Shown: positions 142 through 33,703, numbered from the stretch's first letter. The stretch: DNA of 34,233 bases from Candidatus Nanohaloarchaea archaeon (GCA_046497485.1 JAWOFP010000042.1:1-34233), one strand, 5' to 3'. The notes: a model not told the origin generated them from the sequence alone. Numbers and translations are program-made.

Positions 142-621
142 TCAGGTAAACATCTCAACAATATTATCCGAAAAGTTGTATTCTCCTGAGATCCTGGAGA
201 CCTGTGGGAAGTCATCGAACTCATCGATATGGATCCCTTTCTGACCTGCAGAATAACGCCTCCAGACTTCTTCCCATGGAACCATGTAAGCCTTTCTAGG
301 CCTTCCACGACCCCTCCTCAACTCAACTGCTAGATAGCCTTTACGGCCAGAACGGTTTACGAAATCCGTGATTCGCTCAACTTGATGGCCGTTGTCGCTG
401 ACTGAGAAATGCTGGGAAAAGTAGAGCTTGTTAGTGCTTGAGGCCTTCACCGACTTGTTCTCAATCGCCAAGTAGAAAGTTTCATGAGGTGAATCCACCA
501 GTACATCGCATAGCTGGCTGGAAAACCGGTGCTGCTTCTTTCTATGTGCTATTCCTTCAATCTCTTCATCCTGGAAAAACTGGTTGAATGAATTTACTAA
601 GGCCCTTTCAAAATCAGTCAT
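142..621 (-). CDS. Holliday junction resolvase-like PD-(D/E)XK nuclease
   Basis: Likely start is MTDFER at 621; the ORF-track extension overlaps the upstream gene. Motifs FE...D-VLVD...LAIENKS match the E...D...ExK nuclease pattern. Confidence 0.7.
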   Translation of the reverse strand: MTDFERALVNSFNQFFQDEEIEGIAHRKKQHRFSSQLCDVLVDSPHETFYLAIENKSVKASSTNKLYFSQHFSVSDNGHQVERITDFVNRSGRKGYLAVELRRGRGRPRKAYMVPWEEVWRRYSAGQKGIHIDEFDDFPQVSRISGEYNFSDNIVEMFT

Positions 622-653
622 AATTACAGTATAACATCCTGCAGTAATAAAAT

Positions 654-1391
654 TTAGAAACTTCCAAGGCCTTTCTGCTCCGGACGCTTCAAGACTTTTC
701 CAGAAGTCATCGCCATCGCGACTCTTCCATTTGAGATTATCTGGCCTTTCACACACTGAATCTCGCCTTCTAAAAGGCCTGAACGAGTAAACTCTCCCTC
801 AATCAAAGGATAATCGGTCAATTCCTGTACATCAATTACTTCAGCGTGCCGGTCCTTACCCTTCATAATCTCCGATAAATTTTCCTCAGGTCTGCTAAGC
901 TTGTTCTCTTTCCTGATTCTCTGACTGATATTATCAGTTGTTAACTGATCCTCAATATCAAGAGCTTCATTGGATGTCAGGCCTGATTCGATCTCCGCTG
1001 CGTAATCTGATCCCTGCTCTACCCAGCGCTTCGGAATATTCTCTGATCGAGTAACTCCCACCTTGAACTTATCGCCGATCTGAGCGTAGTAGACTGAGAA
1101 CTCTCCTTCTAATGTGTTTTGTGCGCCTCTAACATAATCGGAGTAAATATCTTTTCCCCGACATTCTGGACATTGAGAACCTGAATCTATCTCCCTAAAT
1201 TCTGGGCAGATAGTTCTTTCACCCGGCGAATGAGCATAACCAGTACATCTCCTTTCATTTTTTAGTTCATAAGAAATACTTCTACCTTGTTGAAGGCCTC
1301 GTTTCTCAAAACCGTTTTTCGTCGCGAGTAACAGGTTAGCCTTCCAGCGTTGATTGCTTCGGCTCCACTGGACTTTGACTATCGATTTCAT
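654..1391 (-). CDS. DUF2797 family protein (Zn-ribbon plus GIY-YIG-like segment)
   Basis: C..G...CP...QCPEC zinc ligands, VYYAQ...KVGVTR...RWVEQG and KGQII motifs recognised as typical of DUF2797. Confidence 0.75.
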   Translation of the reverse strand: MKSIVKVQWSRSNQRWKANLLLATKNGFEKRGLQQGRSISYELKNERRCTGYAHSPGERTICPEFREIDSGSQCPECRGKDIYSDYVRGAQNTLEGEFSVYYAQIGDKFKVGVTRSENIPKRWVEQGSDYAAEIESGLTSNEALDIEDQLTTDNISQRIRKENKLSRPEENLSEIMKGKDRHAEVIDVQELTDYPLIEGEFTRSGLLEGEIQCVKGQIISNGRVAMAMTSGKVLKRPEQKGLGSF

Positions 1392-1986
1392 CTTTTCTTT
1401 CCTCTAAACCTTTTTGATGTGCGGCACCCACAACCACTAGAATATCTTTCCCAGGATTTTCGTCCGCTACTTTCTCTAAGGCCTTGAACATGTAAATATC
1501 TCTCTCCTCTAAGACGGCTTGATAGATTTCTGGGAAACTTTCAGCAAACTTTTCCTTCATACCTTCCAGCATTTCTCCTTCCGGAATCTCGGTATAATCA
1601 AACTTGGTTCCAAAGATAGAAAGTGGAAGCATCATTAAGGCCTTAACTTTCTCCTTTCTCCTCACTGCATTTAGCCGGCCCATAGTCTCTCGAATATCTC
1701 TATCAATTAGATAAATTTCTTTCTCCGTTTTACTGGCTCTATTGTATGCGTGAAGCATCTCCTCACCAGGCATAACACCAGTCTTGCTTCCGATATATTT
1801 CTGAAACTTTGCTAGAAGAGAATAAGCCAAGTTATCAGGACTGTCTCTCTCTCCTGTAATCAAGGCATTCAACCGGCCCATATCAAGTTCAAGACAAACA
1901 ACATCAGGATCAAACTCTTCAAAGGCCTGATCAATTCTTTCTATGCTTTTCTGAGAAACATGCGAAGTCCCGATTATCTTAATCAA
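1336..1986 (-). CDS. TraB/PrgY/GumN family protein
   Basis: GTSHVS, PDVVCLELD..R, GVMPGEEM, LIDRDI, ERD and VVGAAH motifs; TTG start. Confidence 0.85.
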   Translation of the reverse strand: MIKIIGTSHVSQKSIERIDQAFEEFDPDVVCLELDMGRLNALITGERDSPDNLAYSLLAKFQKYIGSKTGVMPGEEMLHAYNRASKTEKEIYLIDRDIRETMGRLNAVRRKEKVKALMMLPLSIFGTKFDYTEIPEGEMLEGMKEKFAESFPEIYQAVLEERDIYMFKALEKVADENPGKDILVVVGAAHQKGLEERKDEIDSQSPVEPKQSTLEG

Positions 1987-2023
1987 TATTCTTCAATCCC
2001 CTTTTTCTATGAGTAAAAATAGT

Positions 2024-2303
2024 GAGGCCTTTCTCCCGCGGTCGGGAGAGTCTCCAGGCTGAGCATCTCCGAAGCTACCTCAGATCCGCCACCCCTCGAA
2101 CATGCCACAGACCGCTTAAGGCTGCTCCCGTCAAGGCCTGACCTGATTCACAACCTGCGACATCCCGAGGGACGGATCATCAACAGTAGCTTCAAAGCCT
2201 CTTCCCTGAAAGCTCAACCTTCCACGGAATAACTAGGGATTCCCTGCTTACGAGGATTACAGGGCAACAGCCGACCTCGAACCGGCCAATCCAACAAGGC
2301 CTC
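2024..2303 (-). ncRNA. ffs: Signal recognition particle (7S/SRP) RNA
   Basis: Terminal helix GAGGCCUU/AAGGCCUC; Alu domain with UGUAA motif and complementary loops CGAGG/CCUCG; long helix 5; helix 8 AGGU-CAGG-CCU-UGAC-GGG-AGCA-GCCU; TTTTAAC box about 25 nt upstream. Confidence 0.93.
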
Positions 2304-2360
2304 AAAAAGAAATTAAGCTGGAAATGTTAAAAGAAGGAAGGCCTTAGAATCTGGAATTAA

Positions 2361-5077: not shown

Positions 5078-5102
5078 CTTGGAGGCCTCAAACTCTATAC
5101 AA

Positions 5103-5175
5103 GCCGGGATGACAGAGCGGCCTTATGTGATCGCCTGCAAAGCGATTTACCCGGGTTCAAATCCCGGTCCCGGCT
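5103..5175 (+). tRNA. tRNA-Cys (GCA), integration target
   Basis: Cloverleaf: acceptor GCCGGGA/TCCCGGC, anticodon arm ATCGC-CTGCAAA-GCGAT, T arm CCGGG-TTCAAAT-CCCGG, discriminator U; no intron and no encoded CCA. Confidence 0.97.
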
Positions 5176-5176
5176 T
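5163..5176 (+). repeat. attL core CCCGGTCCCGGCTT (tRNA 3' end)
   Basis: Identical to 13587-13600. Confidence 0.92.
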
Positions 5177-5208
5177 ATTCATATTAACCTATTATGCCTG
5201 TGACTTTT

Positions 5209-5225
5209 AAGGCGGAGTCTTCTTT
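5209..5225 (+). promoter_or_regulatory. Element operator-like box, copy 1 (AAGGCGGAGTCTTCTTT), upstream of integrase
   Basis: Overlaps TTTTAA (5205-5210); one of four near-identical copies. Confidence 0.7.
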
Positions 5226-5252
5226 GGTAGCCATTACTAGAGGCTACAAAAA

Positions 5253-6506
5253 ATGGGAATACACAACAAGAAAGACAGAATTAAATCGAGACTCCAAAAA
5301 GTCAAACACTCTGAAAACCTCTCAGAATCAGATAAGGACTACTTCCAGGAGGTCCACAAATGGTTGAAAAAAGGAAGTAGAAGCGATAGCAGGGTAGAAA
5401 GATACCTAAGCAGCTTACATTCTATATTAAGGTACCACGATTTCGATCTTCAGCCTTTAACTCAAGAAAAGTTCGATGAGATTCTTTTCTCAATAGAAAA
5501 CAGCGATTACAAGAAACGCGGTCAAGGCGAATATAGCCCTGCTACAAAGGCAGAGTACCGCAAGTTAATGAAAAGACTTTGTATAAAAGAAGATTCTGAG
5601 CATATCTTGCCTAAAGATAACCAAGGAAATATAGATTTCAAGACTCATGTATCGAAGAGCGAAATGAAGAAGACTAGGCCTGATCAGCTTCCTTCAGTAG
5701 AGGATTCTAAGAAAATCGCACAGAAAATTGAGGAGCAGAGTTCTGAAGGAACTGTTCTCAGAAATCTTTCATTATTCTATGTTATTTATGAATCAGGAGC
5801 TCGTATAGGGGAAGTGCTTGAAATCCGTAAAAGAGATGTAGAAATCCTTGATGAGAAAAGTATCAAGATCTACATTACAGGAAACAAAGATTCAAATGAC
5901 AGAGAAAACTTGTTTGTAGTTTCAGCACCTATTCTCAAAAGATACTTCCAAAATCATCCTGAGCCAGATAATCCTGATGCTTATCTTTTCTGTAATATTA
6001 GGCAGGATCAAGGCCGACAAATGCAGTATAAAGCAGCTAAGAAAATCTTGAATAGAGCAGGAAAGGCCGCAGATGTAGATGCTAAATTCAATCCGCATGT
6101 TTTCCGTAAGAAGCGGATCAGCTTCATGAAAGTCTATCTTAACATGAACGAGGCCTTGATTGACAAGAAGGTAGGTCATGTTCCAGGCTCGGATACAACA
6201 AGGATCTACACTAGAATTGATGATCAGGAAATGATCGATCAGTACAAACAGGCCTATGGATTGAAAGATGAGGACAAACCAAACCCTGAGAAAGTCCACT
6301 TATGGCCTCAGAGATGTGCGGAATGTGGTAAGCTTCAGTCAGGTCACCGAGACATGTGCTACTCATGCGGGAAGGTTGTCGATAAAGCAGCATTTGGAGA
6401 CATTGAAGTACACTATGATACTCCAGAGAAAGAAGAAATGATGCAGAAAGTAGAAAACCTGCTGAAAGAGAAAGGAATATTCGACAATTTGGAGGATATG
6501 AAATGA
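5253..6506 (+). CDS. int: Tyrosine recombinase/integrase with C-terminal Zn ribbon
   Basis: ESGARIGE (R), GNK (K), HVFRK (HxxR), VGH (H), RIYT (Y); C-terminal CAEC...CYSC. Confidence 0.95.
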   Translation: MGIHNKKDRIKSRLQKVKHSENLSESDKDYFQEVHKWLKKGSRSDSRVERYLSSLHSILRYHDFDLQPLTQEKFDEILFSIENSDYKKRGQGEYSPATKAEYRKLMKRLCIKEDSEHILPKDNQGNIDFKTHVSKSEMKKTRPDQLPSVEDSKKIAQKIEEQSSEGTVLRNLSLFYVIYESGARIGEVLEIRKRDVEILDEKSIKIYITGNKDSNDRENLFVVSAPILKRYFQNHPEPDNPDAYLFCNIRQDQGRQMQYKAAKKILNRAGKAADVDAKFNPHVFRKKRISFMKVYLNMNEALIDKKVGHVPGSDTTRIYTRIDDQEMIDQYKQAYGLKDEDKPNPEKVHLWPQRCAECGKLQSGHRDMCYSCGKVVDKAAFGDIEVHYDTPEKEEMMQKVENLLKEKGIFDNLEDMK

Positions 6507-6526
6507 AAATCGGGCATGTTGTTTAT

Positions 6527-6543
6527 AAGGCGGAGTCTTCTTT
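6527..6543 (+). promoter_or_regulatory. Element operator-like box, copy 2, upstream of copG-like gene
   Basis: TTTATAAGGCGGAGTCTTCTTT, ATG at 6558. Confidence 0.7.
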
Positions 6544-6557
6544 TACCGGAATAGATT

Positions 6558-6683
6558 ATGGAACTACTCGAGGTATCACTTCCCGAACCCATGAAAAAAA
6601 CACTGAAAGAGGAGTCTCAGAGGAGCGGAAGAAGTATGGCAGAGATAACCCGCTCAGCTCTCTATCAACATCTGGAGGTATAA
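6558..6683 (+). CDS. CopG-like ribbon-helix-helix repressor, 41 aa (missed by the ORF track)
   Basis: MELLEVSLPEPMKKTLKEESQRSGRSMAEITRSALYQHLEV: beta strand, helix, G-x-S, helix RHH signature; follows a TATA box. Confidence 0.85.
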   Translation: MELLEVSLPEPMKKTLKEESQRSGRSMAEITRSALYQHLEV

Positions 6684-6688
6684 TCACA

Positions 6689-6796
6689 ATGCAAGACGAT
6701 ATTCAAAGAATCAGAGAACTTGATGAAGAAAATCCTAAAATCAAAGACACACTTCCTCCGCTCTACAAACAAGTAGTAGAGCAGGTGACAGGATAG
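6689..6796 (+). CDS. Small hypothetical protein, 35 aa
   Basis: GGAGGT RBS at 6674-6679 before ATG 6689: MQDDIQRIRELDEENPKIKDTLPPLYKQVVEQVTG. Replaces ORF-track 6503..6796. Confidence 0.6.
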   Translation: MQDDIQRIRELDEENPKIKDTLPPLYKQVVEQVTG

Positions 6797-6849
6797 TAGA
6801 AAAGAAGACGGAGAGTCCAATTCTCCGTCCTCAATTAAAGTGCCTAACA

Positions 6850-7221
6850 ATGCAAACTTACAATTCCAGCTTTAATAATTCGCCTAATAGGAGGACCGAA
6901 TCCTTCTGGATAGGTGAAGAAGAGCTTAACTTTCTAGATAATTACGCTGAAAACCGCAGTAAAGCCCTGAGAGACCTTATTAAGGAAGAAAAAGAGGAAC
7001 GAGAAGACAGAGATCCTAGTTATACAATGACCAGAGAAGATCTCATTACTCATGAGTCATTCTTTCCTATCAAACAATCAGAGGAGAAGGCCTACTGCAG
7101 TCACTGCAAGGCAGGAATCCAGTTAGATGCTTGCAGGAAGTATGCGAGGATCAAGAATAGTCAATTCCTTATATGCCCGAGATGCCTAAATAGAGTCTTC
7201 ATAGAGAGAGGTGAAGAATAA
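6850..7221 (+). CDS. RHH-like plus C4 zinc-finger protein
   Basis: SFWIGEEELNFLD...NRSKALRDLI RHH-like N-terminus; CSHC...CPRC. Confidence 0.7.
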   Translation: MQTYNSSFNNSPNRRTESFWIGEEELNFLDNYAENRSKALRDLIKEEKEEREDRDPSYTMTREDLITHESFFPIKQSEEKAYCSHCKAGIQLDACRKYARIKNSQFLICPRCLNRVFIERGEE

Positions 7222-7262
7222 TCGAAGATGTATTTCTTGGATTAAACGATCCTATTCAGAAG

Positions 7263-8819
7263 ATGAAGCAGAAGCAGCAGCAAAACCAAGAAGTCACATT
7301 TAAAGACTTCAATTTCTTCATAACCAAGAATGTAGATAGCATAGACAGTCCCGACAAAATCAAAGAAACAAGAGAATTTCTAGAAGAACAAGGAATCATA
7401 GAGACAGAAGACAACAAAGTAACAAAGATAGAATATGAGAAATTCAAAGAAATAGCGGGCCTCAACCAGTCTAAAAACAGCTTAATGGAGCAAGAATTTC
7501 CATTAAACAGCTATCAAGGATTCAGTAAGACAGAATTAGCACAAGAATATGCAGATTGGCTAATAGAAGACTGCAAAATTCAACCTGTATGGATACCAGG
7601 AACAACAATATTCTACAGATATGACAGAACCACCAACACCTGGAACCAAGTAGAGAAAGACCTTATCTTGAAAAAAGCTAAACATGACCTCAGAGGCAGA
7701 TGGAGTAACCACACAAAGAGAGAGCTGCTCAACCAATTCGAGCACCACCAGAACTACATAGAATTTGAGGATATGGGTCTTCCAGAAAACAAATTCCTTC
7801 TAAAAGATGGCCAAGTAATAGACATAGAGACTAGAGAACTAGAGACAGTTAGGCCAGAAATGTATCCGCTTAACAGCTTAAACACTAGATATAACTCTGA
7901 TGCAGAAGGCCAAGAACTCAAACAATTCATAGAAGACACAATAGACAGCGAAGAAATGATTAAAGCACTTCAAGAATTTCTAGGATATAGCCTGACATGG
8001 CCTTCAAGCAAATATGAAAAAATGCTTTTAATCCTGGGCGGCACCGACACAGGAAAAAGTACACTCATAGAAGTAATAGAAGAACTCTACGGAGAATCTA
8101 CACTTACAAAAATCAGTTTCCCGCAGCTCGGAATGGACAGAGCCTTCCATGTTCCAGATCTCAAAGACTCAATTCTCAACATTGACACCGACATGGAAGA
8201 TAAAGACATTCAGAGAAAAAGCCGAGTCAAGAAAATTGTAAGTAAAGAAGAAATTTATGCCGAGGCCAAAGGAAAAGACGGCTACAATATGATACCGAAA
8301 GCCAATCATTTAGTAACAAGCAACAATTGTCCCGAGCACGACAATGCAACCGATGCTTACTTCAACAGATTCATAACCTTGACCGCTACAACTAGGGTGC
8401 CAGAAGAAGAGAAAGACAGAGAGCTAGCAGATAAATTGAAGAGTGAAGAAAATATTCAATGGCTATTCAAGTGGGCACTAGACGGCCTAGACAGATTAAA
8501 CAAACAGAATGACTTTTCCTGGAATCCAACAGAATATGAAACAAAGAAACTATGGGACAGATTCGGAAACAGCGTACAGCAATTTATAGCCGATCAAATA
8601 ACTGTAGATACTCAAGAAGGCCGTAATATCAAAACCGTTGATGTATACGAGGCTTATGAGATGTGGATGGAAGATAAACTGGAGAAAAAAGTCTCCAGAA
8701 ATAAATTTATCGGTATGGCCGCTAACCACCCTGATATGCATAAAGCTAATACACTAGCAGAAGATGGAACACAAGCCAGTTGTTTTGTAGACATTAATAT
8801 CGGTGATTACAATGTTTAA
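7263..8819 (+). CDS. D5/P4-family superfamily-3 helicase, no recognisable primase domain
   Basis: D5_N-like YRYD...W, Walker A GGTDTGKS, motif B LNIDTD, motif C LVTSN, YFNRF arginine finger, C-terminal wHTH VYEAYEMW. Confidence 0.88.
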   Translation: MKQKQQQNQEVTFKDFNFFITKNVDSIDSPDKIKETREFLEEQGIIETEDNKVTKIEYEKFKEIAGLNQSKNSLMEQEFPLNSYQGFSKTELAQEYADWLIEDCKIQPVWIPGTTIFYRYDRTTNTWNQVEKDLILKKAKHDLRGRWSNHTKRELLNQFEHHQNYIEFEDMGLPENKFLLKDGQVIDIETRELETVRPEMYPLNSLNTRYNSDAEGQELKQFIEDTIDSEEMIKALQEFLGYSLTWPSSKYEKMLLILGGTDTGKSTLIEVIEELYGESTLTKISFPQLGMDRAFHVPDLKDSILNIDTDMEDKDIQRKSRVKKIVSKEEIYAEAKGKDGYNMIPKANHLVTSNNCPEHDNATDAYFNRFITLTATTRVPEEEKDRELADKLKSEENIQWLFKWALDGLDRLNKQNDFSWNPTEYETKKLWDRFGNSVQQFIADQITVDTQEGRNIKTVDVYEAYEMWMEDKLEKKVSRNKFIGMAANHPDMHKANTLAEDGTQASCFVDINIGDYNV

Positions 8820-8848
8820 AGAATCTAACAAATTAATCGCTTTAAGGC

Positions 8849-8913
8849 ATCAAAGGGTTATTTACCCCTTTATGTGTTGGCCTAACACCCAAAGGGTGCA
8901 AAACCTCTTTGAT
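8849..8913. repeat. 65 bp imperfect palindrome, candidate replication origin
   Basis: ATCAAAGGGTTATTTACCCCTTTATGTGTTGG|CCTAACACCCAAAGGGTGCAAAACCTCTTTGAT, immediately after the helicase gene. Confidence 0.55.
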
Positions 8914-9052
8914 AGTTTAGATAGTAGTAAATTTTCAGATTTTCTTCTAGAGGTGTATGTCAAATGAAGAACTTACGGTCTTGTTATGAGATAACTATGA
9001 GCAGGTTTTGTGGAGGATATGAGACAGATACGGATAAATGGAGGTTGAGAAA

Positions 9053-9480: not shown

Positions 9481-9500
9481 AATGGAGGTGAAAAATAATA

Positions 9501-23939: not shown

Positions 23940-23948
23940 CGTATTCTT

Positions 23949-24725: not shown

Positions 24726-24781
24726 TATAGAGCACTATATACAAAAAATCTTAAATTATTAGTAGACAGTAAAAGAAGACT

Positions 24782-24871: not shown

Positions 24872-24938
24872 ATACAGATTAATTGAGATCGGGAAGGCCT
24901 TTAAATAGATTGGAGAGGTTAATTTGGAAGGATAGTCT

Positions 24939-25598: not shown

Positions 25599-25646
25599 GC
25601 CTGTTGTCACGGAAAAGTTAAAAGAATAATTCTTCTTATTTCAAGT

Positions 25647-26336
25647 ATGACTGCGGCTGCAGCCGAAGAAAATCATGGAGGACCTGACGGACCCGAAACT
25701 ACAGATTCTCCGGAAGAGCCAGAGATGCCTGAAGAAGATCATGGCGAGGAAGATAGCTCAGATGAATCAGAATTTGACATTGAGGGGTACTTAGAGTCAG
25801 AATCTTCTGAATACGAAAACTTTGGCACAGTAGATGATCTTTACAGAGAAGCAGAGAATCCATCCCAAGTGGATGAAAATGTTGAAATTGTCTACCAGTC
25901 TGAATCCGATATCTACATAACTGAAGAATCGCTTGAGGAAATAGAGACAACCTTCGAAGAGATTGATGAAGAGCTCGAAGAGGATTCAGACACAGGAATT
26001 CTAACTACTGTTAAGGAATACGGAAGTAAAGCAAAAGAATACATTTCTCAAATAACTCCTAACGATAAATGGGACTGGGCTGCTTATGGTTCAGGCCTTG
26101 CAATAGGAGGGATAGGATTCGCGACAGGATCAATCGGATTAGGAGCTGCAGGTTTCTTACTAGAAGGAGTTGGTCTCTATAGATCAAACAGCGGAAAAGA
26201 AGATGCAGAAGAACCAGAAGATGAAGAATCTGAAGAGTACGAACTTGGTGAACTAGAGCCTGTAAAAGACAAAGGAATCAGAGCCATTTCCAGAGATTCG
26301 GTTGAAGAGATCCAGGAAGAATACGATGAGGAATAA
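25647..26336 (+). CDS. Extremely acidic membrane protein
   Basis: D/E-rich flanks around a Gly-rich hydrophobic hairpin. Confidence 0.7.
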   Translation: MTAAAAEENHGGPDGPETTDSPEEPEMPEEDHGEEDSSDESEFDIEGYLESESSEYENFGTVDDLYREAENPSQVDENVEIVYQSESDIYITEESLEEIETTFEEIDEELEEDSDTGILTTVKEYGSKAKEYISQITPNDKWDWAAYGSGLAIGGIGFATGSIGLGAAGFLLEGVGLYRSNSGKEDAEEPEDEESEEYELGELEPVKDKGIRAISRDSVEEIQEEYDEE

Positions 26337-26372
26337 CATCTAACTAAAAAGATTCACAGTTATTTTCTAGAT

Positions 26373-27377
26373 ATGACTGAAGAAAACCAATGCGCCAAAT
26401 GCGACAGAGAAACAGTAATTTTCAGAGAGCACGAAGGAAGAGGCCTCTGTGAGAAACATTTCTCTATTGATATTAACAAGAAAGTGAAGCGCACAATCAG
26501 AGACGGAAACCTAGTTGAATCTGGCGACACGATAGCTGTAGGCCTTTCTGGCGGAAAAGACTCGGCAGTTATGCTTGAGCAGCTAATTGAGATTTTCGGC
26601 GACAGGCCTGACATTGAGATTGTAGCAGTTGCAGTTCATGAGGGAATCGATGAGTATCGTGATGAGTCTATTTCTGCTGCGGAAGAGATGTGCGATGAAC
26701 TTGATGTTAAATTAGAAGTTGGAAAGTATTCCGAGTACTATGATCTGAAGATGGATGATGTCGCGGATGCAGGAGCAAAAGGAAACTGCACCTACTGCGG
26801 AATCATGCGTCGAGATCTTTTGAATAAAATGTGTAGAAAAGTCGATGCAGATAAGATGGCGATCGGCCACAACTTAGATGATGAGGCCCAAGCCATTATG
26901 ATGAACCATATCAAAGGCGATACGAAAAGAATGGCGCGAATCGGGCCTAAAGACGATCCAGCAGACCACGAAATGTTCGTCCCAAGAATCAAGCCTCTGC
27001 GCGATGTGATGGAAAAAGAAATCGCACTCTACTCGAGAATCCATGAATTAGGAGTTATCGATCGATGCCCTCATGTACAGGAATCCTCTTTGAGGCCTAT
27101 GGTCAAAAGTTTTCTAAATAAGCTGGAGTCTCAGATGCCGGGCATCAAGTACTCAATCGTTTCACAAGGAAGAGAAATCTCAGACCTGGTAGAGAATAAC
27201 ATGGACTGGGACAGCGAAGAGAACCAAATCAAAGAATGTGAAAGATGTGGAGAGCCTTGTAGCGGAGGCCTATGCCGTAAATGCCAGTTACTTGATGAAA
27301 TCAAAGTCGCGGCCGACAGTTCAGAAGATCATAACTATGAAATAGATGATGACAAATTAGAGGCGCGTCTGGAATAG
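26373..27377 (+). CDS. ttuA: tRNA 2-thiolation protein TtuA/Ncs6 (ATP pyrophosphatase)
   Basis: N- and C-terminal Zn fingers, SGGKDS, CTYCG..RR, GHNLDD and CPH motifs. Confidence 0.92.
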   Translation: MTEENQCAKCDRETVIFREHEGRGLCEKHFSIDINKKVKRTIRDGNLVESGDTIAVGLSGGKDSAVMLEQLIEIFGDRPDIEIVAVAVHEGIDEYRDESISAAEEMCDELDVKLEVGKYSEYYDLKMDDVADAGAKGNCTYCGIMRRDLLNKMCRKVDADKMAIGHNLDDEAQAIMMNHIKGDTKRMARIGPKDDPADHEMFVPRIKPLRDVMEKEIALYSRIHELGVIDRCPHVQESSLRPMVKSFLNKLESQMPGIKYSIVSQGREISDLVENNMDWDSEENQIKECERCGEPCSGGLCRKCQLLDEIKVAADSSEDHNYEIDDDKLEARLE

Positions 27378-27408
27378 CAATAAAAATGAGAAAGTATTAC
27401 TTTGTAAT

Positions 27409-28374
27409 ATGAAAGCAGTGATTCTTGCAGGAGGCCATGCAACAAGGCTCTGGCCTGTTACTAAAGACCGTGCAAAACCTCTTCTACCTCTTGGAGAAAG
27501 GCCTATAATTGATTATATTGTAGATGAGATGGAGGACTTCGATGAAGTTATTATCTCGACTAATGAAAAATTTGCGGATGACTTCGAGGAATATATCGAG
27601 CTCTCAGACCACGAGAATGTCCGAGTCGTAGTAGAAGAACAGGACAGTGAGGAAGAAAAGCCAGGCACTATCGGCGCTATAATCAATATTTTAGATAAAG
27701 AAAAAATTGAAGACGACCTGCTGATTATTGGAGGAGACAATTATTACAGTTTCTCAATTCAGGACTTCGTGGACTTTTCACTGGAGAAAGATGCGCCTAC
27801 AAATGTAGTATTCGATGTAAACGATTTAGCTAAGGCCTCAAGCTTTGGAATAGTCGATACTGACGAGGATGAGATAGTAGGATTCGAGGAGAAGCCTGAA
27901 GAACCACCTTCTACACTTGCTTCAACTGCTTGCTACTTCTACCCCGAGGACAAACTGAACTTATTCCATGAGTATGAAGAACATTTTAGAGAAAATACAG
28001 ATATTCCAGCGGACCAGTTCTTAGATGAGCCAGGTAGACTGATTGAATGGGCTCACGAACAGACTGATATGTATGCCTACAGCTTTACAGGCGAATGGCA
28101 CGATGTTGGAACGCCTGAAGGATATCTGGATGCCCAGGCCTCCGTAATCGACGGAGAAATCGTGAAAGGAGATGTGGAAAATTCCGAGACAAATGACAAT
28201 GTTTTTCTAATGGAAGGCTCCACAGTCAAGAATTCAGACTTAGAGAATGTGATAATTTTCCACGATGTAGAGATAGAGAACTGCACCATCAAGAACAGTA
28301 TAATCGACAACAACTGTGAGTTAGGGGAAGCCGACTTGAACGACGCAGTTATAGGAGAGCACACATCAATGTAA
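27409..28374 (+). CDS. NDP-sugar synthase (sugar-phosphate nucleotidyltransferase)
   Basis: LAGG.ATRL.P, K.LLP, GGDN, EEKP and W.DVGT motifs; left-handed beta-helix tail. Confidence 0.92.
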   Translation: MKAVILAGGHATRLWPVTKDRAKPLLPLGERPIIDYIVDEMEDFDEVIISTNEKFADDFEEYIELSDHENVRVVVEEQDSEEEKPGTIGAIINILDKEKIEDDLLIIGGDNYYSFSIQDFVDFSLEKDAPTNVVFDVNDLAKASSFGIVDTDEDEIVGFEEKPEEPPSTLASTACYFYPEDKLNLFHEYEEHFRENTDIPADQFLDEPGRLIEWAHEQTDMYAYSFTGEWHDVGTPEGYLDAQASVIDGEIVKGDVENSETNDNVFLMEGSTVKNSDLENVIIFHDVEIENCTIKNSIIDNNCELGEADLNDAVIGEHTSM

Positions 28375-28400
28375 GAGATAAAAAATAAACTTAGAAGGCC

Positions 28401-29261
28401 TTAGATGTTCGAGGCCTCAATATTTTCTAATCTTTCTTCAAGCGGCGGATGAGTCGAGAAGAATTTTGTAATTTTATCGCTGGAAAATGGATTGTAAATG
28501 AATAAATTCGATCCAGCCTCCTGTACGCGAGAATTATGCTTAGTACTTTTTCTTTCATTAGCTGAGCTTATTTTTCTCAAAGCAGATGAAAGGCCTTCTC
28601 TTTTTCTATGAATTTTGACAGCATCCGAATCTGCACGGAACTCCATCTTTCTCGAAATTGATGTTCTGATCACAGTCGCTATTAGCGGGGTTAAAATCAT
28701 CATTGCCATCGCAGACATTAACTCTCCTTCCTGATCTCTTCCAGAAAACATTGCTCCCCAGAAAACCATTTCCGCCATAATCGCTAAAGCACCAGCTACA
28801 GTAGCCACAATAGCGTTAATCAATGTATCACGATTCTTGATATGAGCTAGTTCGTGAGCAATAACTGCCTCAACTTCTTCATGCTCTAAGTCTCTTAACA
28901 GGCCTTTGGTTACACAGACTACTCCTTTCTCAGGATTTCTTCCGGTCGCAAACGCGTTAGGCACTTTCATATCAGAGATGTATAGATCAGGGGTAGGAAT
29001 CTCAGCGTTATTCGCAAGCTTTTCTACCGCATCATATAGTTCAGGTCTGTCGCTTCTCTCAATTTTCTCGGCATTGTATATTTTTAGTACAATTTTGTGA
29101 GAATACCAGTAACTTCCGAAATTTATAACTCCGGCAAATACCAGGCCTAGAACCATTCCACCAGTTCCTCCAATTAGGTAACCGGCTCCTATGAATAGGC
29201 CTGTTAGAATTGATAGAAGGCCTAGGATCTTGGCATTATTTAGAATTCTGTGAGATTCCAT
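28401..29261 (-). CDS. htpX: Zinc metalloprotease HtpX (M48)
   Basis: PNAFATG, HELAH, SR..EF.AD and FSTHPP..ER motifs. Confidence 0.95.
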   Translation of the reverse strand: MESHRILNNAKILGLLSILTGLFIGAGYLIGGTGGMVLGLVFAGVINFGSYWYSHKIVLKIYNAEKIERSDRPELYDAVEKLANNAEIPTPDLYISDMKVPNAFATGRNPEKGVVCVTKGLLRDLEHEEVEAVIAHELAHIKNRDTLINAIVATVAGALAIMAEMVFWGAMFSGRDQEGELMSAMAMMILTPLIATVIRTSISRKMEFRADSDAVKIHRKREGLSSALRKISSANERKSTKHNSRVQEAGSNLFIYNPFSSDKITKFFSTHPPLEERLENIEASNI

Positions 29262-29319
29262 GTGTTATCTAAGTTGTAGAATACTTAAGTTATTTGATAA
29301 ATAAATTAAGGAAAAATAG

Positions 29320-29433
29320 TGTGGCAACGTCAGGAGCCTCCCGTCAAAGACAGTACTACTCAAATCGCTGAGAGACTTTACTTCCGTGTTCGGGATGGGT
29401 ACGGGTGTAACCCTCTCGCTATGGTCGCCAACA
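29320..29433 (-). rRNA. rrf: 5S rRNA, stand-alone
   Basis: UGGCGACCAUAGCG...CACCCGUACCCAUCCCGAACACGGAAGUAAAG...AGUAC...GUUGCCA; TTTATAA box upstream; ends approximate. Confidence 0.95.
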
Positions 29434-29518
29434 AGAACTAACTAGGCCTTAACTCTTATAAAGGAAAGGAAGGTCCCGATGTAAAGTTAAAAACAAGGAC
29501 ATACAATTAAACGATATA

Positions 29519-30031
29519 ATGAGCGGTAACGGGAAGAATATTATTCAGCATTTCAAGAAACTGAAAACATACGATGGATTAGCAATAGGCGCCCTAGCTC
29601 TCAACATTTTCGCGGTCTATACCACTTCTAACATCAGAGATTTCCAGGAGCTTCTGGAGCCGATGGCCAACCAGGAAATAATGGTGATCCAGGCCTCAGC
29701 AATTATGGCATGTCTCTACCTGATAGAGTACTTTGGTGACAGTGAAGGGTCATCAGATAATATGTATCCAACCTCAAGTAATGATGAAGGATTTGTCGCT
29801 ATGATCTCAGGGTTTATGGAGGCAGGTTTTGTAGGCGAAATAGTAGACGCTGCTTCAATCGGAGTAGTATTCTTAGGCTACAGCTACTTATCCGGAAATG
29901 CTTCATATGGAACCTCAATCACAGAAATATCAACTAACCCAGAAGTAATAGCAATGCAGGTAAGCGTAATAATGATGGTAAACTTTGGAATAGTTTTGGT
30001 CTCTGATCTACTTAGCAAATCAAACAATTAG
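29519..30031 (+). CDS. Membrane protein with internal two-TM duplication
   Basis: About four hydrophobic segments; repeated D...IG...N.E....Q.S.IM pattern. Confidence 0.7.
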   Translation: MSGNGKNIIQHFKKLKTYDGLAIGALALNIFAVYTTSNIRDFQELLEPMANQEIMVIQASAIMACLYLIEYFGDSEGSSDNMYPTSSNDEGFVAMISGFMEAGFVGEIVDAASIGVVFLGYSYLSGNASYGTSITEISTNPEVIAMQVSVIMMVNFGIVLVSDLLSKSNN

Positions 30032-30042
30032 AGAATAAAAAA

Positions 30043-30447
30043 TTATAGAGCATTGAGAAGCTCTTCACCACGGCCTTCAGGAACCCGACTGGAAATCAGC
30101 TCATCCATGTAAAAACCGCAGCCAATACATCGGCCTTCAAAGAAAAGCGCCACATATCCTTTTTCCAGGCCTGAATACTCTATCATATCGCCAGTAAGCA
30201 AGGCCTCTAACTCCTCTCTGGAAAAATCAACTCTATTTTCCTCTATTTTATCTTCGATTAACTGGAGGAAATAAGTGGTCGGCTTAAGGCCTATATCCAT
30301 ATCCCTAACTGCTCGAATACCGTTGGTCTCATATCTTTCCTCGGGTTCCTGACAATACCAGAAGTCTCCATTATAATGGAACTCTCCTTCCAGTTCGGCT
30401 CCGAATCTTTCTTTCACATACTCTCTAACATCTGAATTTGGCAACAT
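30043..30447 (-). CDS. NIP7/PUA-like partner of the RsmB/NOP2 methyltransferase
   Basis: ERFG...GIRA...LKPTT...GYVAL..EG..IG.G; overlaps the methyltransferase gene; start MLPNSD. Confidence 0.7.
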   Translation of the reverse strand: MLPNSDVREYVKERFGAELEGEFHYNGDFWYCQEPEERYETNGIRAVRDMDIGLKPTTYFLQLIEDKIEENRVDFSREELEALLTGDMIEYSGLEKGYVALFFEGRCIGCGFYMDELISSRVPEGRGEELLNAL

Positions 30448-31300
30448 ACATCCCTCCACTCTCTAAATGATGCGGATAAATCCTAATAGTTTTACTCAAT
30501 TCTTTTCCAAACTCTATTTCTTCGTAATTTTTCAGGCCCCTCTCATGTTTGAAATCTAGCTCAATTCTCTCAAGCTCTACATCATTATTTTCCAGAGCCT
30601 GACTCACCACATATTCGTTTTCATAAGGCGAGAACGTGCATGTAGAATAGACTACAGTTCCGCCTTCTTTTGTCAATGCAAAGGCCTTCTCCAATAAGTC
30701 AAGCTGGAGATTAGCCAAGTCTTTTGACTCCTGTTTAGACGCCATCTTCTCTTCTTCTCTACGACAGTTATTTCCCTCTCCGGAGCATGGAGCATCTACA
30801 AGCACTTGGTCAAACTCTATATCCTCAGGGATCATTCTTCCATCTTCATTCAATGCATTGACTGAGAAAGCTCCGGTCCTGTAAATGTTTGCGTGAAGGC
30901 TTTTCATCCTCTGATCGGAAACTTCATTCGCAACGACTACGCCGTCATTGTCTATTCTATCGGCGATTTGAGTGGTCTTCCCACCTGGTGCCGAACACAT
31001 ATCAAGTACTTTATCACCAGGCCTCGGATTAAGAAGTGTAACGGGGACAGAAGCTGACTCCTCCTGAACATAGTATTCTCCTCTCCAATGAAGCATCGAT
31101 TTACCAGGCTTTTTCTCATCCTTCAACCTGTAAACTTTGTCGTTCCAAGAGGCCTTTTCAAACTCAAAATCTTCAGCCAATCTTTCCTCAAAATCTTCTC
31201 TAGCTTTGATATCATTCCTTCTAACAGTCGAAACCGGCTCCTTCTGACATTCTTGTTGAAAGGCCTCAAAATCTGGGATTATCGAACTGTATTTTTCCAT
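30425..31300 (-). CDS. RsmB/NOL1/NOP2 RNA m5C methyltransferase
   Basis: YVQEESAS, VLDMCSAPGGKTT, DAPCSGEG and YSTCT..P.ENE motifs. Confidence 0.95.
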   Translation of the reverse strand: MEKYSSIIPDFEAFQQECQKEPVSTVRRNDIKAREDFEERLAEDFEFEKASWNDKVYRLKDEKKPGKSMLHWRGEYYVQEESASVPVTLLNPRPGDKVLDMCSAPGGKTTQIADRIDNDGVVVANEVSDQRMKSLHANIYRTGAFSVNALNEDGRMIPEDIEFDQVLVDAPCSGEGNNCRREEEKMASKQESKDLANLQLDLLEKAFALTKEGGTVVYSTCTFSPYENEYVVSQALENNDVELERIELDFKHERGLKNYEEIEFGKELSKTIRIYPHHLESGGMYVAKFRC

Positions 31301-31839
31301 TATTTAACCCTCTTTGAAACTTTCTGAGGTGTGCCTGATAGAAAGTCCCATCCGTCTTTAGTTCTTCCAATAATAAGTTGGGATACTTTGGTATCTTCTG
31401 TAAAACTGTTGAGCAACATTTTCTCCTTTTCCCTTTCGTCAGGCCTTATTTCTGCGACTACTTCATAACTCCAGTCATCCTTTATTGGTATCTTATAGCG
31501 CCGGAAACCATCTCCAAGATTATCATTTCTTCCAAGAAACGGATCTATTTCTTTAACAGGATAGTCGCCGGAATCTAATACATCTGCTTCTCCTGGACCT
31601 TCTAACCCAAATAAAGTATCTTGATGATCGCTTTCTCCATTGAAAAAATACCCAGATAAGTCTTCACTACCATAAATACAGAGTACAGGTCTAGAATCAA
31701 ATCCTGAAGACGAATACGGAAGGTTAAAGACCAATCCAGATAATCCTTCAATGGCTTCAAGTTCAGGAACTTCATAACTCTGCACATTATGCGAACTATA
31801 CTCTTCTACAGGTATCTGTTCAGCTACCCTCTGACTCAT
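31300..31839 (-). CDS. Hypothetical protein
   Basis: 179 aa ORF with TAATG coupling to the methyltransferase gene. Confidence 0.65.
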   Translation of the reverse strand: MSQRVAEQIPVEEYSSHNVQSYEVPELEAIEGLSGLVFNLPYSSSGFDSRPVLCIYGSEDLSGYFFNGESDHQDTLFGLEGPGEADVLDSGDYPVKEIDPFLGRNDNLGDGFRRYKIPIKDDWSYEVVAEIRPDEREKEKMLLNSFTEDTKVSQLIIGRTKDGWDFLSGTPQKVSKRVK

Positions 31840-32022
31840 ATTAAATCAAATTCAGTACAAGAATCTTATATCTCTAAAATCTCTGAAGGTATAAAATCCG
31901 GTTTTTGCTATTTAGAACTTTGATTTCCAAAGGTCTTAGAGTTTATAGAATAAAATGATTTTCTCTAACCTAAATTTTGTTCTATGAGTACTGTTTTAAG
32001 CGATTATTAATTGAATTCATTT

Positions 32023-32706
32023 ATGGATAGAAGATCTCTTGTTTTCGGGGCTTTTCTTGGTTTTCTTGTGGCTCAATCTCCTAGTTTTCTGAATCATTTG
32101 ACCTTTTTTCTCTCAGGCCAAGTCTCAGAGATGATGTTCCAAGGGAACTGGACTTTGGTCGCGCTCAACATTGGAGGATTTCTACTGTTTTTAATCCCTC
32201 TAGCTTACAGGAGAAAGGCCGACTGGAGATCATACGGAATCTATACAGCATTCATAGTCTCACTTTTCGTAGAAATGTATGGAATCCCACTAACAGTTTA
32301 TCTAGGATCAGGACTACTATCCTCAAGCATGACACCGCCAGATGTAGTATTGACCCTCAGCTTTTTCGGAACCAGTTTAGCCATGAACTACTGGATGATT
32401 ATCGGAGCCCTGATAACTTCTATAGGAATGCTTATCGTGACAGTTGGCTGGGCACAAATATATCGGGGAGAAGGCTTAGTAACGGACGGTATTTACAAGT
32501 ATTCTCGGCATCCTCAGTATCTTGGGATAATTCTTATCGCAGTCGGATGGTTTATCGGATGGCCAACATTACTGACAATGGCAATTCTTCCAATACTGAC
32601 TTATGAATACTACAGGCTCTCATTCAAAGAAGAGGAAGAAGTAATAGAAGAACTGGGCGAAGAAAAATACCAAGAATACAGAGAAAAAACACCTTTACTA
32701 ATCTAA
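32023..32706 (+). CDS. Isoprenylcysteine-carboxyl/phospholipid methyltransferase family membrane protein
   Basis: LF.EMYG.PLT.Y, LVTDGIY...RHPQYLG, EE...L...Y.EY...P motifs. Confidence 0.85.
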   Translation: MDRRSLVFGAFLGFLVAQSPSFLNHLTFFLSGQVSEMMFQGNWTLVALNIGGFLLFLIPLAYRRKADWRSYGIYTAFIVSLFVEMYGIPLTVYLGSGLLSSSMTPPDVVLTLSFFGTSLAMNYWMIIGALITSIGMLIVTVGWAQIYRGEGLVTDGIYKYSRHPQYLGIILIAVGWFIGWPTLLTMAILPILTYEYYRLSFKEEEEVIEELGEEKYQEYREKTPLLI

Positions 32707-32709
32707 ATT

Positions 32710-33273
32710 CTATAGATCGCTCAACTTTTGTTGGCCGGAATTCTCTTTCCCAAATGCCTTTCTGAAATCTTTTTCCAGTTCAGGGCCTTTGCTTCTATCA
32801 TAGAGCGTCGCTGCGGGATGGAATACCGGCATAATCTTCTGGCCTTCCCGAGTAAATATCCGTCCATGAATCTGACTGATTCCTTTACTGGTATCAAGCA
32901 TATACTTGGAAGGAAAGTTCCCTAGAGTAATTATTATTTCAGGATTTACATTTTCGATCTCTTCTTCAAGTAATGGCGCCCAGGCCTCAATCTCTTTCTT
33001 TTTTGGATCTCTATTGTCCGGAGGCCTGATTTTAACTAAATTGGTAATGTATAATTCACTTCGATCGACTATATCGGAGAGAATACCATCCATCCGTTTC
33101 CCTGCCCTGCCGACAAAAGGTTCGCCTTGCTCGACTTCATTCGCTCCTGGAGCCTCCCCTATCAGCATGTAGTCGCTGCTCTCAGACCCGGCCGCTGGAA
33201 CAAAGCGTTCCTCATCCATGTTACTAGGGTGAAGAGTCTCAAAGAAATCTTGATACTTCTTTTTGAATTCCAT
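32710..33273 (-). CDS. udg: Uracil-DNA glycosylase, family 4, cysteine-free
   Basis: IGEAPG..E...G.PFVG.AG, TN.VK.RPP.NR.P and HPAA motifs. Confidence 0.92.
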   Translation of the reverse strand: MEFKKKYQDFFETLHPSNMDEERFVPAAGSESSDYMLIGEAPGANEVEQGEPFVGRAGKRMDGILSDIVDRSELYITNLVKIRPPDNRDPKKKEIEAWAPLLEEEIENVNPEIIITLGNFPSKYMLDTSKGISQIHGRIFTREGQKIMPVFHPAATLYDRSKGPELEKDFRKAFGKENSGQQKLSDL

Positions 33274-33298
33274 AGATATATTACAGCTGCAAGCTATT

Positions 33299-33703
33299 TT
33301 ATTTCTGAGTTTCGTAGAAAATCAGAGACGCTGCAATCGCGACAAACATGTCAGGTACATAAGTAAACGGTCCTACACTTATAGTTTCAAAGCCTGAGAG
33401 AATATGAACTACAGGGCTCGAAGTCACTGCATAAAGCAGTAATGCGGCACTAAACATTGAGAAACCTCTAGACATAGAAGTAGGAACTTCTCTATAAATT
33501 GAAAGATAAGTGTATGTCAAGGTTCCTAGCATAACTATATTGAATGAAGTAAAAAATACTTTAGCTAATATTACGCTTTGGAAGAACTGATTTGGTGCAA
33601 AGAACAGTCTACTTGCGAAATGCGCTGAAATTACTCCGAAAACTGCTGCTGAACTAATTACTGCTGCAAAGGCCTGATTCTTGGTTAAATCTAAATCTTT
33701 CAC
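33299..33703 (-). CDS. Small membrane protein coupled to an HTH regulator
   Basis: About four TM segments; 4 nt overlap with the upstream HTH gene. Confidence 0.75.
   Translation of the reverse strand: MKDLDLTKNQAFAAVISSAAVFGVISAHFASRLFFAPNQFFQSVILAKVFFTSFNIVMLGTLTYTYLSIYREVPTSMSRGFSMFSAALLLYAVTSSPVVHILSGFETISVGPFTYVPDMFVAIAASLIFYETQK

Follow-up and report, generated by a model that had tools for sequence, protein, structure and literature searches.

The closest described counterparts of the pattern analysed in the present work are HIP1 (GCGATCGC) and the alternate highly iterated palindromes (HIPs) of cyanobacteria (Elhai 2015, PMC4390886; Xu, Lawrence and Durand 2018, PMC5861425). The first of these papers states that a HIP, wherever abundant, is accompanied by a methylase specific for it or for its core and that the one-letter variants of a HIP are biased to its first and last letters, and its introduction names the uptake-sequence and Chi classes of signal (Elhai 2015, PMC4390886); the second reports HIP1 sites that are conserved beyond controls and a periodicity at 10-90 kb (Xu et al. 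2018, PMC5861425). The hyper-abundant palindromes of cyanobacteria have been known since 1995 without an accepted mechanism or function. The present work concerns the palindrome AGGCCT in a stretch of DNA of 34,233 nucleotides from Candidatus Nanohaloarchaea archaeon (GCA_046497485.1, JAWOFP010000042.1:1-34233), the whole of which is referred to here as the window, and in the genome to which this stretch belongs. The abundance of AGGCCT reflects a sequence-specific force, which reads the six bases of the word about equally and which has filled 67-95% of the positions compatible with it.

Other systems invite comparison as well. The DNA uptake sequences (DUS) of Neisseriaceae and the uptake signal sequences (USS) of Pasteurellaceae are non-palindromic words of 9-12 letters which occur about once per kb and which work with competence pili that carry a specific receptor. 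Chi is an asymmetric, replication-oriented word, enriched only a few-fold at about 1 per 5 kb, which works with RecBCD or AddAB. The very-short-patch repair carried out by Dcm and Vsr at CCWGG in E. coli has an effect on word frequency of well under 2-fold, acts on T:G mismatches only, and needs both a C5 methylase and Vsr. Finally, AGGCCT itself is the recognition site of the restriction enzymes StuI and Eco147I, and GGCC that of HaeIII.

The window is contig C59 of assembly G000, which comprises 967,558 bp in 66 contigs and is 97% complete. The small-subunit (SSU) rRNA of this assembly is archaeal by rRNA match, and the metagenome contigs that are 85-99% alike to the window come from runs labelled lake-water and hypersaline-lake. 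The copies of the palindrome are distributed over the window as follows:

298..33675, no strand assigned: the AGGCCT palindrome copies, 89 in host DNA (1 per 290 bp over 25.8 kb) and 10 in an integrated element

The window holds 99 copies in all, of which the first starts at 298 and the last spans 33670-33675. Shuffles of the window that preserve its dinucleotides (n=100) contain 8.28 +/- 2.98 copies, with a maximum of 15, so that 0 of the 100 reach the observed count, and mononucleotide composition predicts about 5. The excess is therefore 12-fold against the dinucleotide null and about 19-fold against composition; the original prediction, made from the sequence of the window, had put it at 15-20-fold, which agrees with the second of these figures. 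The remaining counts in that prediction are borne out by recomputation: about 99 copies were claimed, together with nine example coordinates, all of which are correct, as well as a composition expectation of about 5, a density contrast between the host flanks and the element (where there is 1 copy per 842 bp), an occurrence throughout the chromosome, and an archaeal origin, which the SSU rRNA supports.

In the whole genome AGGCCT occurs 3249 times against 153.8 copies expected from base composition, an observed-to-expected ratio (O/E) of 21.1. It is the commonest of the 4096 hexamers, the runner-up being GAAGAA with 1550 copies, and among the 64 palindromic hexamers the second-ranked word, CTGCAG, has an O/E of only 2.15. 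The O/E of AGGCCT in G010, a closed genome of another genus, is 19.4 (the sizes of genomes other than G000 are rounded values). The enriched word is exactly six letters long, as the remaining fifteen words of the form NGGCCN number 18-173 copies each in G000 and are not enriched.

The excess is not a codon artefact, and the force that produces it works at the level of DNA, rather than on codons or peptides. When G000 is divided by a crude gene map composed of the longest non-overlapping open reading frames (ORFs; 986 ORFs, 85.9% coding; the gene maps of other genomes are likewise ORF-based), the palindrome is equally dense in its coding and its intergenic parts, at 3.34 per kb. Copies are found in all three codon phases (512, 932 and 1329), at ORF edges (19) and between ORFs (457, against 17.7 expected), which bears out the claim that they fall in coding and non-coding DNA alike, and in G010 the spacers are denser than the genes (4.84 vs 3.86 per kb). 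Synonymous-codon shuffles of the G000 coding sequences (n=20) yield 385 +/- 15 copies, with a maximum of 420, against 2762 observed, even though a shuffle of this kind, made within each gene, retains not only the protein but also the codon usage of the gene, which is itself already inflated by the motif. A shuffle that preserves codon pairs is an unfair null, because the in-frame pair AGG-CCT is retained by construction. Of the two outcomes that the original prediction had named as fatal to it, namely an excess that vanishes under codon-pair-preserving shuffles and a palindrome confined to one frame and absent from spacers, neither is seen: the excess outlasts the synonymous-codon shuffles, and the copies occupy all frames as well as spacers. 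The strength of the force can be expressed as the fraction of permissive positions, i.e. those at which AGGCCT can be reached by synonymous changes, that are in fact filled. This fraction is 67% in G000 (2760 of 4133), and it is similar across the peptide contexts, at 77.5% for R-P, 65.6% for [KEQ]-A-[FLSYCW] and 64.1% for x-G-L.

The specificity of the force was resolved position by position. In G000 and G010, relative to a genome in which the word is not enriched (G053), AGGCCT is favoured over each of its one-letter neighbours by 2.2-3.0 natural-log units, at every position and for every base, with the exception of the outer transitions GGGCCT and AGGCCC, for which the margin is 1.4-1.9 natural-log units. 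These two outer variants have an O/E of 1.5-2.0 in G000 and G010 against 0.7 in G053, while the inner variants stand at the G053 level. This profile is that of something which reads the whole hexamer, the outer letters slightly less strictly. The copies also carry a weak palindromic flank, TTnnAGGCCTnnAA, which is retained in the 415 purely intergenic copies, where T stands at -3 with a frequency of 0.41 (background 0.30) and A at +3 with a frequency of 0.46 (background 0.32); an additional preference, AAGGCCTT, is found in G010. Beyond +/-4 the flanks are at background, and AGGCCT is therefore not part of a repeat element.

Whether the force is present differs between close relatives. A genome is termed enriched here if the ratio of AGGCCT to the reversed control word TCCGGA is greater than 4, a cut-off that was set after the bimodal spread of the ratios had been viewed (4.3-17.2 in the enriched group, at most 1.63 in the rest). 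Thirteen of the 70 genomes of the phylum are enriched, and all 13 belong to the family of the window, where they make up 5/5 genomes of genus g1, 3/3 of g7, 3/3 of g25 and 2/6 of g2; in the other four families of the phylum 0 of 20 genomes are enriched. Genus g2 thus holds both states, and there are four closed enriched and four closed non-enriched genomes. The median proteome identity to G000 is 56.9% for the enriched G010 and 55.6% and 56.4% for the non-enriched G053 and G035, and the enriched genera are therefore not visibly nearer to G000 than the non-enriched ones. The trait is switchable, being on or off between close relatives. Some relatives are even depleted of the word, which stands at 0.15 of the control word in G025 and G051 and at 0.28 in G035, the last of which avoids words of the GGCC type in general (O/E of 0.03 for GGGCCC and 0.11 for AGGCCC). 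From these counts the depletion looks like the result of exposure to restriction enzymes specific for GGCC or AGGCCT in the same habitat.

The effect of the force on individual sites and proteins was determined by comparison of orthologues, aligned codon by codon between G000 and three genomes: the closed G010 (enriched, from another genus), the closed G053 and 74% of the closed G035 (720 of 973 kb; both non-enriched). Relatives of the same genus (G002, G003 and G004) were compared over part of the window:

13601..33200, no strand assigned: the host stretch used for orthologue alignment with the same-genus G002, G003 and G004

Positions that are permissive in both partners of an alignment are filled to 71% in G000 and 77% in G010, but only to 7.8% in G053 and 2.6% in G035. 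The fill of permissive positions over the whole genome is 73.8% in G010 and 8.5% in G053, and the same-genus G002 fills 41 of the 43 permissive positions shared with it in the host stretch. The force has also changed the supply of such positions. Over the same aligned columns, G000 offers 2354 permissive contexts to the 1418 of G053, and 2023 to the 1199 of G035, while within the enriched pair the numbers are nearly equal (2546 in G000 vs 2508 in G010); the corresponding genome-wide figures per 1000 codons are 14.9 permissive peptide contexts in G000, 15.6 in G010 and 8.9 in G053. Of 1163 G000 copies examined in the 375 genes aligned to all three genomes, 668 lie where neither non-enriched orthologue has a compatible peptide, and at 121 of these 668 sites the two non-enriched orthologues share the same incompatible residues; G010 also has AGGCCT at 27 of the 121. 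Proteins have been altered to accommodate the palindrome, and weak protein constraint has been overridden.

The states from which copies are created can be read from non-enriched orthologues that are one step away from AGGCCT. The commonest of them are third-codon letters, of every kind: in G053 A at motif position 4 leads with 45 cases, followed by A at position 5 with 32, T at position 4 with 30 and G at position 4 with 28, and in G035 A at position 4 is seen 71 times. With A at position 4 among the commonest one-step states, AGGCCT is created by transversions as well as by transitions. The sites are not gained by T-to-C correction alone, since A or G at position 4 and A at position 5 are common in the non-enriched orthologues, and a route through the repair of deamination cannot account for the creation of copies from any neighbour. 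As for the conservation of the sites, 31 of 47 G000 copies are kept as AGGCCT in G002 and 660 of 1872 in G010, compared to an identity of 9-11% for control hexamers. Near-saturation alone gives most of this conservation, and a residual association between the sites of G000 and G010 remains, with an odds ratio of 2.56. Where these two genomes differ at a site by one step, C at position 6 (25 cases) and G at position 1 (22 cases) are seen most often.

One member of the genus provides a view of the opposite process. G004 has 762 copies of AGGCCT, 5 times the count of the control word, and keeps only 9 of 56 aligned G000 copies. Of the 13 one-step variants that G004 shows where G000 has a copy, 11 are G>A or C>T changes at inner letters, compared to 37-44% in G053 and G035, and the ratio of AGGTCT/AGACCT to control words is 1.17 in G004 against 0.55-0.82 in four other genomes; the corresponding contrast for AGGCTT/AAGCCT is weak (1.62 against 0.86-1.74 elsewhere). 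On these small numbers G004 seems to be a lineage in which the force has been weakened or lost and in which the copies are decaying. Differences between the window and metagenome contigs are uninformative either way, with 0 falling in AGGCCT copies among 40 of the 2619 listed and about 0.8 expected.

The reading preferred here, to which a probability of roughly 0.35 is given, is that AGGCCT forms the core of a signal which operates on the DNA itself, and that it is written and kept by a process which lineages can switch on and off, with biased repair as the mechanism. We infer that a protein recognizes the palindrome as a dimer. Under the proposed mechanism, a dimeric factor would recognize AGGCCT together with its weak TTnn/nnAA flanks, and would bias the repair or gene conversion of heteroduplexes between motif and near-motif towards the motif. 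The result would be a molecular drive akin to very-short-patch repair, yet one that is open to all types of mismatch and independent of any known methylase family. If the factor were lost, the copies would decay through ordinary G>A and C>T mutation, as has apparently happened in G004. The mismatch-cutting nuclease NucS/EndoMS is encoded in 5/5 genomes searched, enriched or not (MutS in 0/5), which provides these organisms with a path from mismatch to recombinational repair. A bolder version of this proposal, which can be advanced only tentatively, is that of a methylation-independent “genome-writing” system, in which a switchable factor biases repair towards AGGCCT, overwrites two-thirds to nearly all of the compatible positions, imposes residue changes on no fewer than one in ten of the peptides that host a copy, and, once lost, leaves behind a footprint that decays.

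The alternative that must be weighed most carefully is that the palindrome is maintained by natural selection for a genome-wide function, as the binding site of an abundant protein which either organizes the chromosome or, like the Chi system, tags self DNA against a nuclease. This possibility is nearly as likely as the preferred reading, and part of the evidence that bears on it comes from the spacing of the copies. The palindromes avoid one another. In G000 there are 197 spacings shorter than 50 bp, compared to about 502 expected from an exponential distribution, and spacings below 20 bp are 4-7 times rarer than random over the whole genome, so that the following pair in the window exemplifies a rare arrangement:

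28396..28417, no strand assigned: the closest pair of AGGCCT copies in the window, with starts 16 bp apart

The same avoidance appears when the fill of permissive positions is followed with the distance to the nearest copy. In G000 a fill of 0.13 at 6-12 bp grows to 0.30 at 12-20 bp, to about 0.52 at 20-40 bp, to 0.60 at 40-75 bp and finally to 0.75-0.79 at 100-200 bp, while with permuted labels it shows no trend and stays at 0.67; the fill in G010 likewise climbs with distance, from 0.41 to 0.82. The pair correlation at 6-10 bp is 0.14 in G000 and 0.25 in G010, and it rises smoothly to 1.0 at about 120 bp. Spacers considered alone behave in the same way, with 9 spacings below 20 bp where 26.8 +/- 4.6 are expected. 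Exclusion in the strict pairwise sense is confined to distances below 20 bp; beyond this, it is both members of a close pair that are less often filled. No overshoot or periodic peak is present in the pair correlation at 6-600 bp, and nucleosome-like or helical phasing was rejected on that ground.

A repulsion of this form is what diminishing returns under selection would give: if one copy serves about 100 bp, extra copies nearby add little. The evenness of the spacing, with a repulsion that reaches about 100-120 bp both within genes and between them and that is found in two independent lineages, accordingly counts in favour of a selected function. The repulsion might also arise from the avoidance of hairpins or slippage between copies, which are conceivable because any two copies of a palindrome are mutually complementary. 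On a larger scale, the counts per kb in the closed G010 are under-dispersed (index 0.85), as a selected function would also have it, and the density along the G010 chromosome (L024-L079) contains a component with a period of 74.5 kb, the amplitude of which is 0.41 against a mean density of 4.01 copies per kb, or about 10%. This component is reached by 0 of 500 permutations of the bins, by 4 of 500 after the removal of the effect of guanine plus cytosine (GC) content, and by 8 of 500 when 10-kb blocks are permuted; it has been seen in one genome. Its survival of GC removal and block permutation, the sharing of sites between genera beyond independence, the fit of the palindromic A/T flank to a dimeric binder, and the lower density of the motif in the integrated element and the other sparse islands are further points which selection accommodates. 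What selection does not readily explain is a fill of 74-95%, accompanied by changes in peptides, if extra copies add little. Moreover, congeners manage without the motif, no periodic array exists at 10-200 bp, and no lineage-specific DNA-binding protein is found among the 986 longer and 581 shorter ORFs of G000 that were compared with other genomes as described below.

An improbable alternative is the methylation-dependent mechanism proposed for HIPs by Elhai, in which a methylase marks AGGCCT or GGCC and methyl-directed repair ratchets the number of copies upwards; the methylase would have to belong to an unrecognized family, to be supplied by the host cell, or to be encoded on unassembled DNA. 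The phenomenology matches that of HIP1, down to the bias of the variants to the outer letters. Sister lineages avoid AGGCCT and GGCC words as though exposed to matching restriction enzymes, and a transfer of methylases between host and symbiont has been proposed for a cultured nanohaloarchaeon (PMC11001535). G000 itself encodes one C5 methylase, on a strain-specific contig:

G000 contig C53, 1-4924 (L004): C5 methylase island, a strain-specific contig of 4.9 kb with 9 AGGCCT copies; the methylase is at 98-1264, minus strand

This methylase matches M.HaeIII over the catalytic half only (residues 1-164), so its specificity is not readable. It adjoins two large ORFs of 536 and 452 aa, and none of the three has a counterpart in G010, G053 or G035; the island may be a restriction-modification system. 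The distribution of methylases among the genomes does not follow that of the palindrome. The C5 family (PF00145) is present in 4 of 21 genomes searched, of which G000 is the sole enriched one, and is absent from G001-G005 and from G010. The N4/N6 family (PF01555) exceeds its cut-off in 5 of 21 genomes, all of them non-enriched, with no member in G000-G005 or G010. The N6_Mtase family (PF02384) is clear in the enriched G005 and G041, has no member in G000, G003 or G004, and gives weak generic matches in G010, and the D12 methylase family (PF02086) and Vsr are found in 0 of 5 enriched genomes. Thus the closed and strongly enriched G010 has no clear member of PF00145, PF01555, PF02384 or PF02086, and no Vsr. 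These searches were made at the level of Pfam families, and unrecognized families lie outside their reach. In addition, the copies created by transversions would be impossible for a repair of deamination. Single-molecule real-time (SMRT) sequencing detects 5-methylcytosine poorly. The one published SMRT methylome of a nanohaloarchaeon in culture, a strain that may or may not have the trait, lists GDGcHC only.

A third alternative, which is very improbable, is that AGGCCT is a signal for DNA uptake or recombination like DUS and USS, such that fragments which contain it are preferentially taken up or recombined and a molecular drive results. The even spacing, the depletion in recent acquisitions, the changes in peptides and the patchy occurrence all resemble properties of uptake sequences, and type IV pilus-like loci with T2SSF proteins are present. 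Six letters discriminate little, however, and a palindrome is unlike the uptake signals already described; for any further copy to bring an advantage at a near-saturated density of 4-6 copies per kb, fragments of only about 100-200 bp would probably be required, and a DNA receptor is not known. The idea that the word is a by-product of base composition, of codon or amino-acid usage, or of a dispersed repeat can be given almost no weight, being refuted by the shuffles, the frames, the intergenic copies and the background flanks, and its one apparent support, a maximal-order Markov ratio of only 1.09 for AGGCCT in G000, is to be expected and carries no information, since nearly all occurrences of the 5-letter sub-words lie in the motif itself.

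The factor was sought by a subtraction with tblastn, in which 986 G000 ORFs of at least 90 aa and 581 of 35-90 aa were compared with G010, G053 and the 720 kb of G035. It leaves 58 long and 9 short candidates which are present in G000 and G010 and absent or weak in G053 and G035. By Pfam and NCBIfam annotation they include metabolic enzymes, the genes of a pilus locus, about 13 proteins that belong to no family and, as the strongest signal that the two genomes share, a CRISPR-Cas cassette of type I-B; no obvious site-specific DNA enzyme is found among the annotated candidates. Individual candidates were rejected on their distribution: an Ogt-like protein occurs in 26 of 50 genomes, many of them non-enriched; an AAA ATPase occurs in only 3 of 50 and Cas8b in only 2 of 50; an S-adenosylmethionine methyltransferase is also present in the non-enriched G046; of two family-less proteins, one is present in G046 and G039, and the other is missing from G005 and G045 and occurs in G039; and an ArsR regulator is shared by all 5 genomes in which it was sought. 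This design would miss an allelic difference in a core protein, as well as any factor encoded on unassembled DNA.

The reverse subtraction yields 28 genes that are present in G053 and G035 and in neither G000 nor G010. The sole gene of DNA metabolism among them encodes a Y-family polymerase, and its loss was rejected as the cause of enrichment, since the gene is still present in the enriched G005, G041-G043 and G045. As a separate observation, inorganic pyrophosphatase, TatC, the RNase P proteins p30 and Pop5, and several PIN toxins have tblastn matches in G053 and G035 and none in G000 or G010, which may reflect real loss or mere divergence.

Several considerations weigh against the proposal that biased repair writes the palindrome. 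A repulsion over about 100 bp is unexpected from a drive that acts site by site; the sharing of sites between genera beyond independence and the weak 74.5-kb modulation in G010 suit selection at least as well as drive; the known repair machinery, NucS and MutS, does not distinguish enriched genomes from non-enriched ones; of twelve families or proteins whose co-distribution with the trait was tested none tracks it, about 45 of the 58 long candidates lying outside that test; and the repair bias itself is presumed. Between these two accounts the saturation and the peptide changes favour drive, and the even spacing, the site sharing and the weak periodicity favour selection.

The DNA in which the palindrome is sparse, and the other features of the window, remain to be described. 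G010 has no 10-kb window with 10 copies or fewer, and G000 has only three sparse islands, one of which is the element integrated in the window:

5163..13600, plus strand: integrated mobile element of 8.4 kb, bounded by a 14-nucleotide direct repeat, CCCGGTCCCGGCTT, at 5163-5176 and 13587-13600
5102..5176, plus strand: tRNA-Cys, the integration target, whose 3' end is the left attachment repeat
5253..6506, plus strand: tyrosine integrase of the element (PF00589, E 1.9e-16)
7263..8819, plus strand: D5-type primase-helicase of the element (DUF5906, E 8.8e-16; D5_N weak)
11255-11743: Mrr-like nuclease domain protein of the element (Mrr_cat domain)

The element, which has a GC content of 0.383 and also encodes small helix-turn-helix proteins, contains its 10 AGGCCT copies at 1.2 per kb, still about 9 times the expectation from its own composition. 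A conserved word of about 20 nucleotides occurs in it four times, each time just upstream of an ORF (5193-5225, 6511-6543, 10144-10176 and 10548-10580), and is possibly the element's own promoter or operator motif.

The palindrome is similarly far above chance elsewhere, with densities of 2.2 and 1.6 per kb in an apparently transferred cas island and 1.8 per kb in the methylase contig; all resident DNA is affected by the force. The cas island is the cassette recovered by the subtraction:

G000 contig C45, 339-6694, and G010, 800.5-808.8 kb (L064:551-8801): type I-B CRISPR-Cas cassette (Cas6, Cas8b, Cas7, Cas5, Cas3, Cas4, Cas1)

The identity between the G000 and G010 cassettes is 48-87%, well above the proteome median of 57%, and the cassette is present in only 2 of 50 genomes of the family. 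In G010 it sits between the orthologues of the window ORFs at 15582-16973 and 17170-18267. From these features it looks horizontally transferred.

Two RNA genes of the window complete the description:

2026..2301, minus strand: signal recognition particle (SRP) RNA gene (Rfam RF01857, 101.7 bits)
29319-29432, minus strand: 5S rRNA gene, with no AGGCCT copy

Copies of AGGCCT start at 2134 and 2297 inside the SRP RNA gene and at 2025 on its edge, and the motif therefore occurs even within the gene of a structured RNA. The pile-up of metagenome contigs by more than 10-fold at 29319-29432 is due to the 5S rRNA gene at that position. Among the proteins, one of 1019 aa at 18285-21341 (minus strand) occurs among the genomes of the family in two deeply divergent forms, of 65-80% and 41-44% identity to the G000 protein, which are scattered across genera; the same-genus G002 has a 43% form at the syntenic position, which suggests that the protein was there replaced by a xenologue.

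A signal of the type known from cyanobacteria is now found in another domain of life, in genomes of about 1 Mb that offer natural on/off contrasts. The force reshapes about 0.3% of the positions of the genome at the level of DNA and measurably alters proteins in an organism with a minimal genome. If the genome-writing proposal is true, these archaea would be the first tractable system in which to find what builds highly iterated palindromes. The cause can be tested by comparative genomics, by methylomes, and by pull-downs in the existing co-cultures of nanohaloarchaea with haloarchaea. In practical terms, AGGCCT is a strong lineage marker for binning, and it confounds analyses of codon usage and selection in these genomes. 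Among the top literature matches no publication was found that links AGGCCT with nanohaloarchaea, Nanosalina or DPANN, and the word does not occur in the two nanohaloarchaeal methylome papers or in the account of alternate HIPs (Elhai 2015, PMC4390886). What the present work adds is the spacing repulsion, the flank in spacers, the bias at each position, the evidence from transversions, the distribution across the phylum, and a gene hunt with a negative outcome.

The comparison with the systems introduced at the outset can now be drawn. The sites of type II restriction-modification systems share the very word, and sister lineages show the avoidance that is usual for such sites; in the enriched genomes, in contrast, a word which is normally avoided is enriched 20-fold, and no matching enzyme pair was found there. 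Dcm/Vsr repair shares the principle of a recognition-directed repair that pushes near-sites to the site and raises its frequency, but Vsr is found in none of the five enriched genomes, there is no shared C5 methylase, and transversions also create copies. Chi resembles AGGCCT as a short over-represented word that marks self DNA for recombination and repair; AGGCCT differs in being a palindrome, and hence without orientation. The uptake sequences are likewise hyper-abundant, sparse in recent imports, peptide-changing, evenly spaced and confined to lineages, whereas AGGCCT has six letters, is palindromic, and carries only a weak symmetric A/T flank.

The closest relation remains that to HIP1. 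The differences are the archaeal host, a word of six letters rather than eight, a very high density of 1 per 250-300 bp, the short-range repulsion and the creation of copies by transversions, which are demonstrated here for AGGCCT, and the lack of a cognate C5, N4/N6, N6 or D12 methylase that tracks the palindrome. The methylase link suggested in the original prediction is thus unsupported by gene content, as neither these methylases nor Vsr co-occur with the trait, and its further suggestions of a repair signature, a chromosome-organising site or a self-recognition tag are narrowed by the data without a decision among them. Its description of a HIP-like system holds, AGGCCT being a GC-rich palindrome, enriched about 20-fold, present in genes and spacers, restricted to lineages and varied at its outer letters. 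Like HIP1, AGGCCT is a GC-rich palindrome enriched at least 15-fold in genes, in all frames, and in spacers; it is present or absent between relatives; and its variants are biased to the outer letters. Its sites agree between genomes more often than control hexamers do, although near-saturation would account for most of this, and it is possibly periodic at 10-90 kb, as the 74.5-kb component of one genome, G010, would have it. With four of the defining features of a HIP and without the methylase association, AGGCCT is a HIP-like phenomenon, and is best regarded as a variant of the highly iterated palindromes rather than as a member of them.

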